Of a DNA stretch of 64,000 nucleotides, positions 37,488-52,566 are shown in pieces. Numbering within the stretch: position 1 is the stretch's first letter; the number at the start of each line of letters is the position of its first letter. The translations under genes and the position numbers were made by a program. Where the stretch lies: the NCBI GenBank assembly GCA_019058365.1, contig JAHPZE010000006.1, positions 96,001-160,000 on the forward strand, read 5' to 3'. A model generated the notes under the pieces. It worked only from the letters and a program-made list of their open reading frames with translations, ran no database searches and was not told the DNA's origin. This DNA is from Promethearchaeota archaeon (GTDB lineage: Archaea > Asgardarchaeota > Lokiarchaeia > Sigyniarchaeales > SOKP01).

Positions 37488-38828
37488 GTGGAAAAAATGA
37501 CAGAGGATATATATTTTTACTTAGATCTTACTAAAGATTTATTGAGAAAAAAAGAGATCATAAAAACAATTAAATATTACATTGAGGAAAAAAATAAAGC
37601 AAACTTAAAAGGTCACTATTCTCTCTTGATTTTTCAAGAAGAGGGAAATCCAGTCTTTTTAACGGATAAAAAAGATTCTGATATAATTGCCAACTCAATT
37701 GAAGAAAATTGGAATACTCGTCCAAAAGATAAAAGTTATTTTGAAAATGGGTTATTTTACATTTTTTCTTATATTGCTGAGACTGTGAGAAAAAAATCCA
37801 AATTTAATAGAATTATAGTTATTACAGATACGCCATCCGACTTATCTGAAGAATATCAAGAGGCTCTATTTAATTTAGTATCAAAGATAAAGAATTTTCC
37901 CACATTTATAGATATTATTAGAGTATCCAAAGAGGGCGAACGCTTTTTTAAAGATGATGTAAAATTGAATATGCTTGCAAGTGACACTAAGGGAGGAATT
38001 TTTTATATTCAGGACAGAAAAGGCTTCACTGATGTGATTAAGAAACTTGTAAAGACTAAACAATTTGTAACTACATTTGAAGATCAACCTGATCTTATTA
38101 GAATAAGCAAAGAAGATTATGCTTTCTACAGTCAATTAGCAAAATCCTTAATAAAATCTAGTGAATTAAATTTAGTATGTCATTTTTGTAATGAAGAAGT
38201 ATGTCCCGTTTGTATGGATGTTCATGATACTCCGTTGATTTGTGAAGACTGTAATACAAGTTTTCATCATTGTTGTATTACCAATTATGTTATAAATCAT
38301 AATATTGGTATACCTCATATTTTTCGTTGTCCCAATAACGAATGTGATGTGCTTCTTAAAATAGATGAAGATGAGATAATTGAAGTATCAGGAGAAGTAG
38401 AAGTAGGAACGGTAAAGGAATATTTAGAAGAAGAACTACTTCAAGAGTCATTAGAAGAAATTCCCGAAGAAGAAGAACCTAGTTCTATTACACCTACTCT
38501 ACAAAAAATAGAAACTCCGCCAGTAAAAGAAAAAAGTATCTCTGGAGCAAAACAAGTCACAACCATTAGAATTGGTGGATTTTTTGGAAAAGTCTATACC
38601 GTAAAAAAAATGGGAGATAAAATTGTGTACGAGAAGTCTACACAGCCAACTTTTAAACCAAGTGCTGAAACTTCAAAAAGAGGAGAATTTATACTAAAAG
38701 ATACTATAAAACTTACGAGTGAAAAAGCGAGAAAGAAACCAAAGTTTATTATTTGTCCTCAATGTGGAACTCAAAATGATTCTACTCACACCTCGTGTTC
38801 TAATTGTGGAAATAAATTATCATATTAA
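37488..38828 (+). CDS. vWA-like + PHD/RING-type zinc finger + C-terminal zinc-ribbon protein (paralogue 1)
   Basis: FYLDLT, IIVITD, IDIIRV, TKGGIFY (vWA strands); CHFC-CPVC-CEDC-HHCC-CPNNEC; CPQC..CSNC. Confidence 0.7.
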   Translation: MEKMTEDIYFYLDLTKDLLRKKEIIKTIKYYIEEKNKANLKGHYSLLIFQEEGNPVFLTDKKDSDIIANSIEENWNTRPKDKSYFENGLFYIFSYIAETVRKKSKFNRIIVITDTPSDLSEEYQEALFNLVSKIKNFPTFIDIIRVSKEGERFFKDDVKLNMLASDTKGGIFYIQDRKGFTDVIKKLVKTKQFVTTFEDQPDLIRISKEDYAFYSQLAKSLIKSSELNLVCHFCNEEVCPVCMDVHDTPLICEDCNTSFHHCCITNYVINHNIGIPHIFRCPNNECDVLLKIDEDEIIEVSGEVEVGTVKEYLEEELLQESLEEIPEEEEPSSITPTLQKIETPPVKEKSISGAKQVTTIRIGGFFGKVYTVKKMGDKIVYEKSTQPTFKPSAETSKRGEFILKDTIKLTSEKARKKPKFIICPQCGTQNDSTHTSCSNCGNKLSY

Positions 38829-38992: not shown

Positions 38993-40297
38993 ATGTTACC
39001 ACGATCTTCTAATACGGTAAATTCTGAGGAATTTATTTTTTATATAGACTTAATTACTGATTTCTTGAAAAAGAAACCCTTAGTGAAAGCAATAAATGCT
39101 TTTATAAAAGAAAAAGATAAATTTAATGTTTTAACTTCTTACGGAGTGGTGCTTTTTCAAAAAGATGAGAATCCGATAAATGTTTATGATTTAAAAGATG
39201 TGGAAACCGTTATAAATACCATAAACAATGGATGGGAAACACGAGAAATTGAGAAAAGTTATCTAGAAAATGGGTTATATGAAATACTTGCATATATTTT
39301 TAGGAAAAGCCGTGATACAAGAAAGAATTATCGTATAATAATAATTTCAGATTCCCCTAGCAAATTATCTGAGGATTATTATAATGCACTTTACGATTTA
39401 CTCATTAAAGCAAAAAAATTTTCAGCTTTTATTGACATTATTCGTGTGGGAGAAGAGAAATTTTTTGAAGATGATGTAAAACTTAAAGTTATTTCAAGTG
39501 AAACTCATGGAGGCACATTCTATTGTCAAAGTGATAAACTTCTTCAAACTATCTTAGGTTCTTTGACTCAGAATAAAAAAGAATTCAAAGTTATACTCTC
39601 TGATGAGTCTGAACAAATTTTAAAAGAAGATCAAGTTTTTTATGAACGATTGGCCGTAGATCTCATTAGTCTCTCTACAGATGATCAAGAAATATGTGAT
39701 ATCTGCGAACAAGCGGTATGTCCTATTTGTGAAGCTCATTCTGATGAGATACATAAGTGTTTTAATTGTAACGCTAAATTTCATAGTTGCTGTGCGGCAA
39801 AATATTCCCTTGTTAAGAATATAGGTTTTAAACATCTATTTAGGTGTCCGCAATGTGACACTCTTTTAAAACTAGATGAAGAATTTGTCAATATGATATA
39901 TGATGAAGAGATAGAAGAAGGATTGCCTGAAATAGATTTGGGTGAACCTTTTTCAGAACCTGTCATGGAAGCGCTCGAAGTTCAAGAAGAACTAATAGAA
40001 AAAGTAGAGGAAGAGCCCGTTGAAATACCCGAATCAGCCATACCTACACCAACGAAAAAGGTACGGTTAGGAGGGTTCTTTGGGAAAGATGTTACAATTA
40101 CAACTGGAACTACAAAAGGTGAAGTAGCATTAAAAGTTCCAGAAATTATTAAGTCACCAGAAGAACAAAATGTCTCGATAACAAATTTAAGACCACCAAA
40201 AAGAAGAGGAACTGGAACAATACGACTTTGTAAAATTTGTGGAGCAACGATACATAATACCCGAAATTGTCCAACATGCGGGGCTAAAGCTGATTAG
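38993..40297 (+). CDS. vWA-like + PHD/RING-type zinc finger + C-terminal zinc-ribbon protein (paralogue 2)
   Basis: FYIDLI, IIIISD, IDIIRV, THGGTFY; CDIC-CPIC-CFNC-HSCC-CPQC; CKIC..CPTC. Confidence 0.7.
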   Translation: MLPRSSNTVNSEEFIFYIDLITDFLKKKPLVKAINAFIKEKDKFNVLTSYGVVLFQKDENPINVYDLKDVETVINTINNGWETREIEKSYLENGLYEILAYIFRKSRDTRKNYRIIIISDSPSKLSEDYYNALYDLLIKAKKFSAFIDIIRVGEEKFFEDDVKLKVISSETHGGTFYCQSDKLLQTILGSLTQNKKEFKVILSDESEQILKEDQVFYERLAVDLISLSTDDQEICDICEQAVCPICEAHSDEIHKCFNCNAKFHSCCAAKYSLVKNIGFKHLFRCPQCDTLLKLDEEFVNMIYDEEIEEGLPEIDLGEPFSEPVMEALEVQEELIEKVEEEPVEIPESAIPTPTKKVRLGGFFGKDVTITTGTTKGEVALKVPEIIKSPEEQNVSITNLRPPKRRGTGTIRLCKICGATIHNTRNCPTCGAKAD

Positions 40298-43839: not shown

Positions 43840-46800
43840 ATGAGAAATAGAAAAAATTTTACTGTTATAATATTATTATTGTTATTTCTTCAAACTTTTA
43901 TTGGAATAATACCCCTTAATTTTCTTAATTTTAATGATAAAGAGAGAAATGAAACTCAAAAGATTGATCTTAAATATTCAGATATTATAATTGGAAACTA
44001 CACAGTTCCAGGAGTTTCAAGTCCAGTTTCCCTAAATCACTTAATTAGAATAGGATTGCTAGATGATATGAATGATATTACTGGCGATCACGCTTGGAAA
44101 GGAGCATTATTAGCTGCTAAACACATTAACGAGGCTGGTGGTATTGATATTTATGGGAATGGTACAAATCATTATATAGGTTTGACTGCTGAGGATACAG
44201 ATGAAGCTAACATAGCTATGGATGTATCAAAGGGAGTAGCTGCTGCAAATAGAATGATAACATATAATAATCCCCATTTTATTATAGGAGGATATAGAGA
44301 AGAAGCTGTGTCAGCTTATCAGGAAGTTATAATGGATGCTCAAATCCCTTTTTTAAGTACTGGAGTTTCAACTGATATTTTCACTCAAAATGTCTTGAAT
44401 GATTATGAACGCTATAAATATTTCTTTCGAATCATGCCAATGAATAGTACCTCACTTGGTACAGTACTTATTTATTATTTAGGTTTTCTTTGTACCAATT
44501 TAGGTGCAATTTATGGTGGCACATTGAATAAAGTAGCTATTTTTCGAGAAGATTTACCTTGGACAGAACCATTAAGTAATGCTCTTAATTTAACTTTAGG
44601 AGCTTGGGGGATAACTGTTGTACAAGAAATCGCCTTTCCCATAACTGCAACTTCAACAGATTTTAATACCTATTGGAATATGATTGAAAGTGCGGGTGTT
44701 CAATTAACAATTCCGTTGGTAACGGAGGGTTCTGGTGCAATTAAAATGATACAACAATATAGGGCGGTAAAACCAAAATGTCTCTTAGCAGGTATTAATC
44801 TACTTTCCCAATTAGATACTTATTGGGATTATACTGAAGGTGCATGTCAATATGAAATTACAATGCAAGCTATCCATAGAACCAATAAAACTTTCATGAC
44901 AATCCCGTTCTGGGATAGTTTTGTTTCAGAATATAATATGGAGCCATTTTATACTGGAGTTGGATCCTATGATGCGATACAATTATTAGCAGATGTTTGT
45001 GATGCGATAAATTCATTTAATTCAACTAACATTATTACAGCATTAGAGGGATTTAATAAAACTAACCCTTATGTAGGTATTAGTGCTCAAATAGCCTTTA
45101 CTAGTTCTCACGATTTGTTGGCAGGATATCCTTATGCTTCTACTCTTTTTACTCAATGGCAATTGGATGGAAAAAAAGTCACCATTCCTTCATTTGTCCC
45201 TTCAATCTACTCTGGATATTATCCAAGTTCTCTTTCCACAGGTCAAATTTCAATTCCGTACTGGGGCATTAATAATCTTGTAGCAGCACAGGACTTACCG
45301 GGAGATTTCATTCTAAATGATACTGCTGACTTCCAAGATAGGGATGGTAACTTTAATTTGACTTGGACGAACTCTACTGGTGCCGATAATTATTCTGTAT
45401 ACATGCATGACAAGTCTATTACTTACATAAACGATAACCTTGAACTATTAGCTGATCATAATGCACATTCTTCTTATCAAATTTCAGGATTAAAAACTGG
45501 AAAGTATTATTTTGTTGTAGTGGCGTATAATGGAACCGGTGAAAAATTGTCGAATAATGATGTAATAAATGTAGAACGTCCTAGGCCAGGAAATTTCACC
45601 CTAACTAGTGATGCTGGTAACCCAGATACCGATGGTTCTTTTAATTTGACTTGGACTGATTCAGAAGGAGTAGATAATTATTCTATATTTACTTATAATC
45701 ATTTCATTACTGAGATTAATGAAAGTGTCACTATCCTTGCAAATCAAACAGCAACCTCACCCTTTCCAATCACAGGGTTATCAAGCGGAAATTATTATTT
45801 CGTAGTTATAGCATACAATGCAACTGGAGAAACGATATCCAATAACGTTAATGTAACAGTAAAGATACCTCCGGGACAATTTACATTATCTTCAGATGCT
45901 TATACTCCTTTTGATACCGATGGAGCTTTTAACCTTACTTGGACAGAGTCAACTGTGGCTGATAATTATTCTGTTTATCAGTATTCCCGATATATTACCG
46001 TTATAAATGACAGTCTCATTCCTCTTGAGATCGCAACAAGTAATACATCATTCCAGATTACTTATTTGCCAAGTGGAACTTATTATTTTATTGTTATGGC
46101 AAATAACAGTTATGGCTATAATCTTTCGAATTGTATTAATATAACTATTCAAATTTATGATGAATTAAGTGGTTATTGGATATTAAACCCATTTCTTATT
46201 GATAATACTGGTGTTGGTGATTATACTTGGTTGGAAGTTGCAGCCTTACCATGGTGTAGTGGTTCTGGAACATCAGTTGCCCCTTATATAATAGAAGCTA
46301 TTAAAATTAATGGGCAAAATTCTGGTAGTTGTATTATAGTTCGAAACTCTAGTGTTTACTTTAAATTAAGAAATTGCTCATGTTATAATTCTGGTAATGC
46401 CCTAAATGACGCGGGAATTAAATTAATTAATTTAACAAATGGAATTCTAAAATATATTAATTGTTCTTTTAACGATGGAAATGGAATTCTTTTAGACCTA
46501 TGTCAAAATGTAACCATAACGAGTAGCACTGTTAATAATAATAGTCTAAACGGCATTAAGTTAATAGATAGTGATTACATAAATATTTCGGATAACATGG
46601 ATACAATTAATTGGAATAGCGAGTATGGCATTTCTTTAGAACATAGCGATTATAATGAGATTAGGGGAAATATGATAAATTATAATACAATTGGAGTTTA
46701 CCTTTATGAATCTAACTATAATACTATAACAGATAATGATTTAACAAATAATGATCAACCCTATGAACAAGTAGGTAGTATTGGAAATATTATTCATAGT

Positions 46801-47649
46801 AATCTTGGTGTATCGGAGGAAACACCATTTCCTTTTGATATTTTAATTATCGTTCTGATAATTGGATTAGTAGTTGTTGGAGTTGTAGGTGCTGTATTAA
46901 TAGTAAAGAAGAGAACTTCTACATCCGGATTGAAGAAAAAAGAAATAAGTGAGAAAAAAAGACTAAAAATAAGAAGAAAACTTGAAGCAAAATTAATTTT
47001 TGTTGATGATCTCATAAAGGAGAGAAATATAAAATCGGCTTATAAAAATTTAGGTAAAATACAAGATACAGCTGATCAATATGAATTCTTTGGTATATTT
47101 AATGAAGCAACGGAAAAAATTGAATATTGTAAGGATATTCAACAAGGAATTTATGAAGAAGCTAAGAGGGAGTCTGTAATTACTCCTTTAGTATCAGAAA
47201 GCTTTGAAAAAGAAACTCAGATCGCACCCGTATCAAAAAAAGTAGAAGAACCAACGCACAATATCTTTATAAGTTATTCTACTTTAGACGCAGAATATTT
47301 TCAAATAAATAAAATTGTGAAAAAGCTTAAAAAATATCCTGAAATTGAGAACGTCCTATACTGGGAAAGGGATAGTAAAGAAAATATAGTTGAATTTATG
47401 GATAGAACTCTGAAAGAAAGTGATGTTTTTATCCTCTTTTGCAGTGAAAGATCGCTGAATTCTGCAGCTGTAAGTGATGAGTGGCAGGCAGCGTTTCAAC
47501 GTAGAAAAAAAGGGTTAATTAAAATGATTCCTGTTTATGAAGATGAAAAATATGTTCCCCCAATTTTAGGCCATTTATTAAATGTGAAGTATACAAAAGA
47601 TGATTTTGATAGTTTTATTGAGAAACTTCATCGAGAAATCTTGAGATGA
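43840..47649 (+). CDS. Single-pass receptor-like protein: Venus-flytrap (Liv-type) domain - 3x FN3/Ig-like - NosD-like beta-helix - TM - TIR
   Basis: N-terminal hydrophobic segment; IRIGLL...GALLAAKHINEAGGI...YFFRI...YDAIQLL; 3x PGxFxL..DA..D.DG.FNLTWT.S..ADNYS...YYFxV.A.N; N-rich beta-helix; TM ILIIVLIIGLVVVGVVGAVLIV-KKR; IFISYS...FILFCS..S..S..V.DEW...MIPV. Confidence 0.85.
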   Translation: MRNRKNFTVIILLLLFLQTFIGIIPLNFLNFNDKERNETQKIDLKYSDIIIGNYTVPGVSSPVSLNHLIRIGLLDDMNDITGDHAWKGALLAAKHINEAGGIDIYGNGTNHYIGLTAEDTDEANIAMDVSKGVAAANRMITYNNPHFIIGGYREEAVSAYQEVIMDAQIPFLSTGVSTDIFTQNVLNDYERYKYFFRIMPMNSTSLGTVLIYYLGFLCTNLGAIYGGTLNKVAIFREDLPWTEPLSNALNLTLGAWGITVVQEIAFPITATSTDFNTYWNMIESAGVQLTIPLVTEGSGAIKMIQQYRAVKPKCLLAGINLLSQLDTYWDYTEGACQYEITMQAIHRTNKTFMTIPFWDSFVSEYNMEPFYTGVGSYDAIQLLADVCDAINSFNSTNIITALEGFNKTNPYVGISAQIAFTSSHDLLAGYPYASTLFTQWQLDGKKVTIPSFVPSIYSGYYPSSLSTGQISIPYWGINNLVAAQDLPGDFILNDTADFQDRDGNFNLTWTNSTGADNYSVYMHDKSITYINDNLELLADHNAHSSYQISGLKTGKYYFVVVAYNGTGEKLSNNDVINVERPRPGNFTLTSDAGNPDTDGSFNLTWTDSEGVDNYSIFTYNHFITEINESVTILANQTATSPFPITGLSSGNYYFVVIAYNATGETISNNVNVTVKIPPGQFTLSSDAYTPFDTDGAFNLTWTESTVADNYSVYQYSRYITVINDSLIPLEIATSNTSFQITYLPSGTYYFIVMANNSYGYNLSNCINITIQIYDELSGYWILNPFLIDNTGVGDYTWLEVAALPWCSGSGTSVAPYIIEAIKINGQNSGSCIIVRNSSVYFKLRNCSCYNSGNALNDAGIKLINLTNGILKYINCSFNDGNGILLDLCQNVTITSSTVNNNSLNGIKLIDSDYINISDNMDTINWNSEYGISLEHSDYNEIRGNMINYNTIGVYLYESNYNTITDNDLTNNDQPYEQVGSIGNIIHSNLGVSEETPFPFDILIIVLIIGLVVVGVVGAVLIVKKRTSTSGLKKKEISEKKRLKIRRKLEAKLIFVDDLIKERNIKSAYKNLGKIQDTADQYEFFGIFNEATEKIEYCKDIQQGIYEEAKRESVITPLVSESFEKETQIAPVSKKVEEPTHNIFISYSTLDAEYFQINKIVKKLKKYPEIENVLYWERDSKENIVEFMDRTLKESDVFILFCSERSLNSAAVSDEWQAAFQRRKKGLIKMIPVYEDEKYVPPILGHLLNVKYTKDDFDSFIEKLHREILR

Positions 47650-51648: not shown

Positions 51649-52566
51649 ATGCTAAAAAAAACCATACTTTTTGATTTAACTCACAATGAAATGTTAAATA
51701 TCGATGATGAAGAATTTAAGGAATTCTCAAATCTTCTAAAACGATTAGATGTTAAGATTAAAAAGAATGAGAATGGACATATAACGAAAAACACATTAGA
51801 AAATATTGATCTTGTAATCATTGGTAATCCAATTGATGATTTCTTTTCAAGTTTAGAAATAAAACATGTTGTTGATCATGTGAGAAGTGGAGGGGGGGTA
51901 CTCTTATTGAGTGAATATGGAGCAGATCACCTTCAAAAAACCAATCTAAATGATATTGCTGGAAAATTTGGTATTTTTTTTGAGAAAAATATAATTAAAG
52001 AGATAAATGACAACAATAAAAATTGTTCTAGCATATTACACATTCAGAATTTTTTAAAGCATCAAATAACAAAAAATTTAAGAGAAATAATAATTGGAGG
52101 TGCATGTTCCTTATTTTTAAGTAAAGAAGTAAAGCCTATATTGCAATCAAATGAACGATCTGTATGGTCAGAAGTTTATAATAATGCATCTGAGGAATGG
52201 TCCAAACTAGAGGAAAAACAGTATACTCTTGCAGCATATTCAGAATTTGGTCAAGGAAAAATCATTGCGATTGGAGATATTGATATATTCACTAACAATT
52301 CAAAAATAGGCATAAATTCATTGGATAATCGAAAATTTATTCAAAATATTATTAATTGGTTAATAAATCCTGTTAAGGAATCTAAGGTTAAGTCATTTAT
52401 CCTTAATCAACTTGGTGATCTCCAATATGAAATTAAGGAGACTAACAAAGTATTGAATAATATTATCGAAACTATGACGATTTTAGAAAAACGAATTACT
52501 TATTTGGAAAAAAATTCAAAAGTAGATATGCAACCATCAGATCAAGAAGAAAGTTTTGAAACTTAA
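51649..52566 (+). CDS. GIFT (GldG/IFT52-like) domain + C-terminal coiled coil
   Basis: ILFDLTHNE, LVIIGNP, GGGVLLL, LNDIAGKFGI, GKIIAIGD, DNRKFIQNIINWL. Confidence 0.72.
   Translation: MLKKTILFDLTHNEMLNIDDEEFKEFSNLLKRLDVKIKKNENGHITKNTLENIDLVIIGNPIDDFFSSLEIKHVVDHVRSGGGVLLLSEYGADHLQKTNLNDIAGKFGIFFEKNIIKEINDNNKNCSSILHIQNFLKHQITKNLREIIIGGACSLFLSKEVKPILQSNERSVWSEVYNNASEEWSKLEEKQYTLAAYSEFGQGKIIAIGDIDIFTNNSKIGINSLDNRKFIQNIINWLINPVKESKVKSFILNQLGDLQYEIKETNKVLNNIIETMTILEKRITYLEKNSKVDMQPSDQEESFET

Follow-up and report, generated by a model that had tools for sequence, protein, structure and literature searches.

Introduction

TIR domains are an immune and signalling module common to bacteria, plants, and animals. 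In the TIR NADases Cat1, AbTir, SARM1, and SPARTA, activity depends on the packing of TIR domains against each other. To our knowledge, a cytoplasmic TIR domain behind a ligand-binding ectodomain has hitherto been viewed as an animal invention.

Here, we identified a gene, P0001, in a Lokiarchaeial archaeon whose product has a Toll-like layout: its outer part bears a domain of the amino-acid-binding type, a single helix crosses the membrane, and the TIR domain is predicted to lie inside. P0001 is a member of a large, apparently undescribed archaeal family in which a common TIR tail carries exchanged outer parts; within the archaea nearest eukaryotes, this layout is thus found in a family that is conserved, expanded, and modular. 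In the open full-text literature, as distinct from subscription journals, we found no description of archaeal ectodomain-TM-TIR receptors, and Leao et al. 2024 name TIR only within lists of defence-system names (PMC11291487).

Results

Domain architecture and membrane topology

The window is the whole stretch of DNA analysed (64,000 nt; contig JAHPZE010000006.1, positions 96,001 to 160,000, forward strand), and all coordinates are positions in it. P0001 has the following features, with the basis of each assignment in parentheses.

43840..47649, + strand, whole gene P0001, 1269 aa, stop codon counted in (ORF continuous)
43861..43917, + strand, N-terminal hydrophobic segment, aa 8-26, preceded by the basic n-region RNRK; signal peptide or signal anchor (Kyte-Doolittle 2.54)
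44005..45279, + strand, type I periplasmic-binding (HAAT/LivJ-class) domain, aa 56-480, Pfam core 69-409 (Pfam; profile of relatives)
45295..46152, + strand, three FN3-like repeats, aa 486-771 (Pfam fn3; repeat comparison)
46165..46833, + strand, NosD-type right-handed beta-helix, aa 776-998, Pfam span 817-981 (Pfam)
46840..46914, + strand, TM helix, aa 1001-1022, then KKR stop-transfer, aa 1023-1025 (hydrophobicity)
46936..47166, + strand, conserved juxtamembrane three-helix module, aa 1033-1109 (alignment; AF2 model)
47167..47259, + strand, variable, low-confidence linker, aa 1110-1140 (alignment; pLDDT 34-45)
47260..47646, + strand, TIR domain, aa 1141-1269, reaching the C-terminus (Pfam; alignment; AF2; Foldseek)
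47461..47484, + strand, SAAVSDEW motif, with S1208, V1211, E1214, and W1215 invariant (alignment of relatives)

The initial annotation had described one open reading frame with a hydrophobic N-terminus, a periplasmic-binding domain, three FN3 repeats, and a NosD-like helix, and both Pfam and hydrophobicity agree with it. Pfam matched Peripla_BP_6 (aa 69-409, 5.4e-22), fn3 (8e-9), NosD (aa 835-981, 7e-15), and Beta_helix (aa 817-919), and ANF_receptor fell slightly short of its cut-off (25.0 versus 25.4 bits). The three FN3 repeats (aa 486-579, 580-673, and 674-771) share 49-50% pairwise identity.

Two segments are strongly hydrophobic, aa 8-26 and aa 1001-1022, and the second is followed by KKR, in line with the single TM helix and stop-transfer noted earlier. 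The many NxS/T sequons that had been remarked on amount to 34 in the ectodomain, against 16.0 ± 3.4 in shuffled sequence, and to none in the 247-aa tail. A single TM helix, the uneven spread of sequons, and the positive-inside rule together predict that the TIR domain is on the cytoplasmic side, across the membrane from the flytrap domain.

The TIR domain and its putative active site

TIR_2 (PF13676) matched aa 1142-1263 (9e-16, 58.9 bits versus a cut-off of 28) over profile positions 1-121 of 122, ThsB_TIR was borderline (21.8 bits versus 21.2), and the animal-type TIR family PF01582 stayed under threshold (E 0.036, 14.3 bits versus 21.3). The AF2 model of the domain has a pLDDT of 89 and five strands alternating with helices. 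Among the 50 Foldseek matches listed for this model, 49 of the matches being at E ≤ 1e-3, all belong to TIR-domain proteins but for one related SEFIR domain; they include the NADases SPARTA TIR-APAZ, AbTir, and SARM1 as well as the scaffolding TIRs Hydra TRR-2, TLR2, MyD88, and MAL. The C-terminus thus models as a TIR domain, and the motifs from which this had been proposed (IFISYS and S..V.DEW with its Glu) are present as NIFISYS and SAAVSDEW, the codon of E1214 lying at 47479-47481.

A PDB search with the single TIR sequence returned nothing significant, and a profile was needed for alignment with solved structures. In the profile alignment, E1214 corresponds to E74 and S1208 to S68 of Cat1, which line the NADase site of the solved Cat1 structure and were both among the residues picked for alanine substitution (PMC12162218). 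Both residues are invariant across 71 tails, many of them attached to unrelated ectodomains; mean column identity is 66%. The position four residues before the Glu (E-4) is A1210 in P0001, Ala in 62 of the 71 tails, and Ser in 9, where NADase TIRs usually have Trp, as do both profile-aligned TIRs, Cat1 and 9m0n; in the family tails an invariant Trp (W1215) directly follows the Glu. A Glu at the equivalent position is also known from some non-enzymatic animal TIRs. Judging from the aligned residues, the tail is a candidate NADase, although the missing E-4 Trp and the Glu of those non-enzymatic TIRs count against this reading. A two-copy complex prediction of the tail scored 0.00 and weighs neither for nor against self-association.

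The tail could instead be a non-enzymatic scaffold, in which the TIR domain and the three-helix module recruit partners by homotypic contacts without NAD+ cleavage, as in animal TLR/MyD88. The AF2 model places the helices of the module at aa 1038-1060, 1064-1080, and 1084-1109 with a pLDDT of about 80, and a polytopic membrane protein without a TIR domain, P0134, ends in the same three helices, which suggests an interaction module. This agrees with a scaffold, as do the absence of the canonical E-4 Trp and the animal adaptors and receptors among the structural matches. However, the Glu and Ser at the NADase positions are invariant in at least 71 proteins, a gene for a nucleotide-sensing SLOG protein shows genomic linkage to the family (see below), and an HMM of the module matched only 4 proteins in its own genome, all of them membrane proteins, with no soluble protein carrying it. 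We therefore regard a pure scaffold as distinctly unlikely. The linker module of P0001 matches no Pfam family; in the paralogue P0099, only one repeat reaches ArnB_C (27.3 bits versus a cut-off of 26.3).

A putative receptor family with exchanged ectodomains

As predicted earlier, Asgard genomes encode this TM-TIR tail behind a variety of other ectodomains. The ectodomains on the TM-linker-TIR tail include PBP6, SBP_bac_5 (peptide-binding), WD40/PQQ, FG-GAP, PKD, and pure beta-helix types, and one variant has four TM helices in place of an ectodomain. At least 203 clusters (50% identity) match at E ≤ 1e-30. The full architecture of P0001 recurs in at least 9 full-length proteins of other assemblies at 52-67% identity, three of them with the same synteny. 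An assembly chimera, which the initial annotation had named as a concern, or a gene-calling artefact is next to inconceivable given these relatives and the continuous frame. The TIR-fused PBP domains (n=14) form one clade with an SH-aLRT of 97, which also takes in two truncated sequences whose C-termini are unseen.

The binding domain and the transporter question

A PDB search with the single PBP-domain sequence gave nothing significant, and a profile of 45 relatives was needed to reach binding proteins for branched-chain amino acids, urea, and amides (best 2.3e-9). P0001 may sense a small molecule through the flytrap domain and signal through NAD-derived products, as first proposed.

The genes around P0001 are Aminotran_3, DAP_DH, PiT, PhoU_div, DUF2284, and PurA, with no ABC permease or ATPase gene among them. 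The absence of ABC neighbours reported earlier is thus real, but its value as a sign of a sensor is lost, and we dropped it as evidence for a sensor role: three close PBP6-FN3 paralogues that end in a plain TM anchor likewise lack adjacent ABC genes. The genome has a single LivHMGF cassette, at the start of another contig (C18), and one other PBP6 gene, at the end of contig C43; the two contig ends probably abut, which leaves P0001 an orphan. P0001 might be an ordinary tethered substrate-binding protein that serves this one transporter, its TIR tail being a mere anchor or regulator; its PBP domain is of the HAAT class, its close paralogues carry the anchor alone, and a TM anchor is frequent in archaeal binding proteins. 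Yet conservation is higher in the TIR tail than in the binding domain, the same tail occurs on non-transport ectodomains, and the separate PBP6 gene (506 aa) lies at a contig end probably contiguous with the liv cassette. Taken together, this makes a transport role very improbable.

Distribution and divergence

The TIR subfamily is present in 44 of 301 Asgard genomes, and 43 of these carriers (own genome counted) belong to four related families (f1 to f4), with one carrier outside; nearly all carriers are from a single Lokiarchaeial family. Within the genus of P0001, 9 of 21 other genomes have the TIR family, and the number of copies per genome ranges from 1 to 11. The family is accessory. The gene is dispensable, because in G195, a genome of the same genus, the flanking genes are conserved and the P0001 counterpart is missing from the locus.

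These patterns bear on an antiviral role, in which the ectodomain would be an integrated decoy that mimics a common virus-attachment surface protein, a multivalent virion would cluster the receptors, and the TIR domains would deplete NAD+ or signal alarm, in the manner of abortive infection; the TIR chemistry would be that of the sensor reading proposed below, with a different input and purpose. Both the accessory distribution and the copy number are in keeping with a decoy, and the PBP6, SBP_bac_5, WD40/PQQ, and FG-GAP ectodomains all have close counterparts with a plain TM anchor. Divergence is faster in the ectodomain, at 49-70% identity, than in most of the housekeeping genes on either side, at 63-91%. 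Between orthologues, the identities of the TIR and PBP domains are discordant, which suggests module exchange. A multivalent particle would also account for clustering better than an amino acid. On the other hand, no PADLOC defence model matched (E ≤ 0.01), and the neighbours of the locus are syntenic housekeeping genes with no defence island. We consider an antiviral sentinel rather unlikely, although it deserves to be taken seriously.

Linkage to a SLOG gene

On contig C53 of the same genome, a gene of RelA_SpoT-TPR-LSDAT_prok (SLOG) architecture (G000:C53:31612-34179) follows the 4TM-TIR paralogue, with its start 533 bp downstream; its SLOG match is just under the Pfam cut-off (24.5 versus 25.4 bits). 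In G000 (the present genome), G189, G177, G276, G147, and G071, the two genes are adjacent, and in G207 and G171 they lie within about 10 kb of each other. Within the genus, 8 of 10 TIR-family genomes have a SLOG match no shorter than about 670 aa (34-100% identity); of the 12 genomes lacking the family, 1 has such a match (35% identity) and 2 have short matches only. The TIR family is thus genomically linked to the SLOG gene, whose product may read the product of the TIR domain. Three observations count against such a reader: among the flanking genes of the P0001 locus there is neither an effector nor a SLOG gene, the SLOG score is just under its cut-off, and in genus g4, 20 of 28 genomes have the TIR family but just 3 of 28 the SLOG homologue.

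Discussion

Proposed mechanism

P0001 would be a glycosylated single-pass surface receptor that is switched on by clustering and has an NAD-derived output, a reading to which we give an even chance. Outside, the LivJ-class binding domain would sit atop a stalk of three FN3 repeats and a beta-helix; inside, the polybasic stop-transfer would be followed by the three-helix module, a flexible linker of ~30 residues, and the TIR domain. Ligand occupancy or ectodomain cross-linking would alter the association of receptors in the membrane, and the TIR tails would then pack together in the cytoplasm and create composite sites for NAD+ cleavage. The cytosolic RelA/SpoT-TPR-SLOG protein, the gene of which lies beside the paralogous membrane TIR, could sense an ADP-ribose-type product; plain NAD+ depletion would be an alternative output.

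Activation by clustering is favoured over allosteric transmission because the stalk between the flytrap domain and the membrane is ~520 residues long, and from its length we judged GPCR-like transmission from the flytrap domain unlikely. An amino acid, being monovalent, would not bridge receptors, which counts against clustering by ligand.

A wider outside-in pathway, in which receptors with exchangeable ectodomains generate NAD-derived messengers for a common cytosolic SLOG-RelA/SpoT reader, is possible, although we lean against it. If true, it would give prokaryotes their first transmembrane second-messenger system based on TIR domains, and its role could be nutrient or partner sensing or an integrated-decoy antiviral alarm. 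Extracellular cues could then drive TIR enzymes directly, and the system would be tractable for the study of a clustering-switched TIR; its binding domain, tail, and SLOG protein are each amenable to separate expression. It would also bear on how Asgard cells, which are slow-growing, syntrophic, and amino-acid-fermenting, perceive nutrients, partners, or viruses.

Comparison with known systems

The binding domain of P0001 belongs to the type I periplasmic-binding fold family, together with LivJ/LivK proteins, natriuretic-peptide receptors, and class C GPCRs. Compared with LivJ/LivK, P0001 is not beside liv permease genes and is only distantly related to the solved binding proteins; compared with natriuretic-peptide receptors and class C GPCRs, its domain has a TIR as fusion partner where they have a guanylate cyclase or 7TM domain. 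The long stalk that carries the binding domain sets P0001 apart from all of these.

P0001 shares with Thoeris (ThsB TIR, ThsA SLOG) and other nucleotide signalling systems that lead from TIR to SLOG the Glu at the catalytic position and a SLOG gene beside a TIR gene, which here is that of a paralogue. Rather than a soluble sensor, the P0001 TIR domain forms the C-terminal part of a large surface protein, its locus has neither a SLOG gene nor a PADLOC match, and the candidate reader bears RelA/SpoT and TPR domains instead of SIR2.

Like animal Toll-like/IL-1 receptors and Hydra TRR-2, P0001 is predicted to be a type I single-pass protein with a glycosylated ectodomain and a cytoplasmic TIR domain, and the TIRs of Hydra TRR-2 and TLR2 are among the best structural matches of its own. 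The ectodomains differ, being PBP6, FN3, and beta-helix in P0001 and LRR or Ig in Toll/IL-1R, and the P0001 TIR domain fits TIR_2 rather than PF01582 and keeps NADase-typical residues. We know of no MyD88-like adaptor for the archaeal family. The likeness to Toll/IL-1R drawn in the initial annotation therefore stands for topology but not for common descent: since the TIR subfamily is confined to a few Lokiarchaeial lineages, convergence is the simplest explanation, and direct ancestry of animal Toll receptors is not supported.

With the NADases Cat1, AbTir, SARM1, and SPARTA, the P0001 TIR domain shares its fold and the aligned active-site Glu and Ser, and it differs from them in the Ala in place of Trp at E-4 and the invariant Trp after the Glu. 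In contrast to these enzymes, activation of P0001 would originate in an extracellular domain.

Domain architecture and membrane topology

The receptor gene is a single unbroken ORF of 1269 codons (window 43840-47649, + strand). The initial annotation had read in it an N-terminal hydrophobic segment, a periplasmic-binding (flytrap) domain, three FN3/Ig-like repeats, a NosD-like beta-helix, a single TM helix with a KKR stop-transfer and a TIR domain; all of these were recovered in one continuous frame, the folded domains by Pfam and NCBIfam matches.

Features of the receptor protein
aa 8-26: hydrophobic segment 1, preceded by basic RNRK
aa 69-409: Peripla_BP_6 (PBP6; Pfam, 5.4e-22)
following region: fn3 (Pfam), three repeats with pairwise identity of 49-50%
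aa 817-981: NosD/Beta_helix (Pfam, 7e-15)
aa 1001-1022: hydrophobic segment 2, followed by KKR
aa 1142-1263: TIR_2 (Pfam, 9e-16; 58.9 bits, cut-off 28)

These are the only two strongly hydrophobic segments. Parallel beta-helix repeats were also detected (NCBIfam), and ANF_receptor scored 25.0 bits, slightly below its Pfam cut-off of 25.4. The ectodomain is acidic (K+R 4%) and the 247-residue tail is highly charged (K+R 19%). The abundant N-x-S/T sequons pointed out earlier number 34 in the ectodomain, as compared to 16.0 +/- 3.4 after shuffling, and none occurs in the tail. Because of these charge and sequon asymmetries across a single TM helix, the TIR is predicted to be cytoplasmic, with the flytrap domain on the opposite side of one membrane crossing, as had been supposed.

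A modular family with swapped ectodomains

An assembly chimera was rejected, since at least nine full-length proteins encoded in other assemblies share the full architecture (52-67% identity); the named sources of these or related matches are mostly Promethearchaeota, the Loki-type Asgard archaea. As the initial annotation had anticipated, the same TM-TIR tail is combined with several ectodomain types. A search with the tail only returned 69 proteins, 68 of which possess a hydrophobic N-terminal segment and/or one TM helix that lies 160-480 residues ahead of a C-terminal TIR that finishes ...GFIxKLYxEILR.

Ectodomains and variants among the tail matches
PBP6: 13 proteins
SBP_bac_5 peptide binders: 7
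beta-helix alone: about 30
PKD
FG-GAP, PQQ or WD40 propellers
four TM helices in place of an ectodomain: some
soluble, with LRR and PCI domains: one

An exhaustive tail search gave at least 203 clusters (50% identity) at E<=1e-30, with the TIR at the extreme C-terminus in nearly all. Close relatives of the PBP6-FN3 ectodomain also exist without beta-helix and TIR, ending in a TM helix with a short basic tail; one source labels this end a Loki-CTERM sorting domain. In a tree of the PBP domain, 14 TIR-fused copies and two truncated sequences form one clade (SH-aLRT 97), while a second TIR-fused pair is placed among these anchor-only copies, which implies that the tail must have been gained or lost at least twice.

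Right behind the stop-transfer, a module of ~75 residues is strongly conserved among 30 aligned tails of comparable length and is predicted to form three helices (AlphaFold, pLDDT about 80); ~30 variable, low-confidence residues separate it from the TIR. Its HMM matches only four proteins of the window's own genome (G000), every one a membrane protein: the receptor, a 2206-aa beta-helix-TIR paralogue, a 4TM-TIR paralogue with five module copies, and P0134, a polytopic protein without TIR. It is possible that the module forms an interaction unit in its own right. P0134 (431 aa, G000:C7:171802-173097, L035:3803-5098) lies outside the window on the same contig and carries the module at its end.

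The TIR domain

A single-sequence PDB search with the receptor TIR gave no match. An alignment of 71 C-terminal tails was used for an AlphaFold model and a profile. The model (pLDDT 89) has a five-strand alpha/beta fold, and the Foldseek matches listed are TIR-domain proteins throughout, including SPARTA TIR-APAZ, Hydra TRR-2, RPS4, AbTir, TLR2, SARM1 and MyD88, except for one related SEFIR domain; the C-terminus thus models as the TIR it was taken for. Mean column identity of the tail is 66% across the 71 sequences, though their ectodomains are often unrelated, and F1143, S1145, D1150, S1179, C1201, S1208, V1211, E1214, W1215, Q1220 and K1223 are invariant. In the PDB, the profile finds Cat1 and the TIR-TPR protein 9m0n. 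When aligned, S1208 and E1214 fall on Cat1 S68 and E74, two residues that the solved structure shows lining the NADase site and that were among those picked for alanine substitution (PMC12162218). The Glu noted earlier at the position catalytic in NAD-cleaving TIRs is E1214, and the invariant Trp directly follows it. Position E-4 is Ala in the receptor family as compared to Trp in both aligned TIRs. This missing Trp speaks for a TIR that acts as a non-enzymatic scaffold, which we consider unlikely.

Transport or sensing

The receptor gene has no ABC genes on either side, in agreement with the initial annotation. The only livHMGF cassette of G000 opens contig C18, starting 238 bp in (G000:C18:238-3648), and its only other PBP6 gene (506 aa, C43:77122-78642) lies ~100 bp from the end of contig C43; because of these positions, the two ends probably abut and form one liv operon. 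This arrangement fits an orphan, putatively non-transport role for the TIR-fused copy. As a sign of sensing, however, the absence of ABC neighbours is weak on its own, because three anchor-only PBP6-FN3 paralogues from other genomes likewise lie far from ABC genes. That the receptor is just a plain tethered binding protein seems to us very improbable. Among solved structures, LIV, urea and amide binders are only distant relatives of the PBP domain (best match 2.3e-9). One anchor-only paralogue (L033 4234-9688) lies two genes downstream of Aminotran_3, like the receptor in the window, and the nearby Aminotran_3 in both cases may point to an amine or an amino acid as ligand.

A candidate SLOG reader

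Outside the window, an 856-aa gene (G000:C53:31612-34179, L020:613-3183) begins 533 bp downstream of the 4TM-TIR paralogue, whose TIR is 63% identical to that of the receptor. Its product matches RelA_SpoT (8.8e-10), TPR and, slightly below the 25.4 cut-off, the LSDAT_prok SLOG domain (1.8e-5, 24.5 bits). Matches to it occur in 18 of 301 Asgard genomes; such a gene adjoins a family TIR in at least six genomes and lies within ~10 kb of one in two more. Within the genus, SLOG matches of about 670 aa or longer are present in 8 of 10 carriers of the TIR family (34-100% identity) and in 1 of 12 non-carriers (35%), two of the 12 having short matches only; these are related genomes, not independent samples. 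Because of this relatedness, and because most TIR-bearing genomes of another genus (g4) are without the SLOG protein, the link is suggestive rather than general.

The reading with the best support, to which we give even chances, is that the protein is a surface receptor with the TIR as output, activated by clustering, whose nucleotide product would be bound by the SLOG protein. TIR NADases require TIR-TIR packing, and the binding domain stands far from the membrane on a long stalk; for both reasons, clustering rather than allostery would be the activating step.

Locus, distribution and evolution

The order Aminotran_3, DAP_DH, receptor, PiT, PhoU_div, DUF2284 and PurA is conserved in two other genomes. 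A third keeps the downstream half, with an SBP_bac_5-NosD-TIR receptor and an LRR-PCI protein upstream. In G195, from the same genus, flanks 76-83% identical in DNA enclose ~120 bp instead of the receptor-bearing 4.3 kb, and the locus is rearranged in two more genomes of the genus. The match to DAP_DH in G195 is divided between two frames (aa 6-280 and 267-341; L029, G195:C36, 6868-7996), which is a frameshift or sequencing error.

Three further genes of the window were recorded. Tandem paralogues at 37488-38828 and 38993-40297 (446 and 434 aa) have Cys-rich, zinc-ribbon-like segments and no further family match, and their synteny is kept in two orthologous loci (L017 and L018). The third gene, at 51649-52566, encodes 305 aa with a match to the IFT52 GIFT domain (7.9e-12), known from eukaryotic intraflagellar transport, with synteny kept in L016 and L017.

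Identity between orthologues is 72-91% for most flanking genes (PiT 63% in one genome), 49-70% for ectodomain parts and 58-88% for the TIR. In comparison with the receptor of the window, the TIR of L016 is the most similar (88%) and its PBP domain the least (51%), whereas in L017 the PBP domain comes closest (64%) and the TIR is the least similar (58%). This mosaic suggests that tails may have been exchanged between paralogues.

The TIR subfamily is present in 44 of the 301 Asgard genomes searched, with 1 to 11 copies per carrier: 37 of 68 genomes of its own family (9 of 21 others in its genus), a few genomes of sister families and a single genome elsewhere. The match in the latter (G136:C221:2568-2969, family f24; 8.7e-68, 989-aa frame) is the only strong one outside Lokiarchaeial lineages and may stem from a transfer or from contamination of the bin. 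The family is accessory and lineage-restricted. This distribution, the fast-evolving ectodomain and the requirement for a multivalent trigger are better explained by an antiviral sentinel or decoy with the same chemistry; PADLOC defence models, however, gave no match to the receptor, and we regard this role as rather unlikely.

Comparison with known systems

A description of this ectodomain-TM-TIR family was not found in the searchable literature. The proposed likeness to Toll/IL-1 receptors held for layout only, as neither the ectodomain nor the TIR subtype fits that family and shared descent with it is not supported. For a clustering surface receptor with TIR output, Thoeris-type TIR-to-SLOG signalling is the closest system in logic, from which the receptor differs by its transmembrane input.
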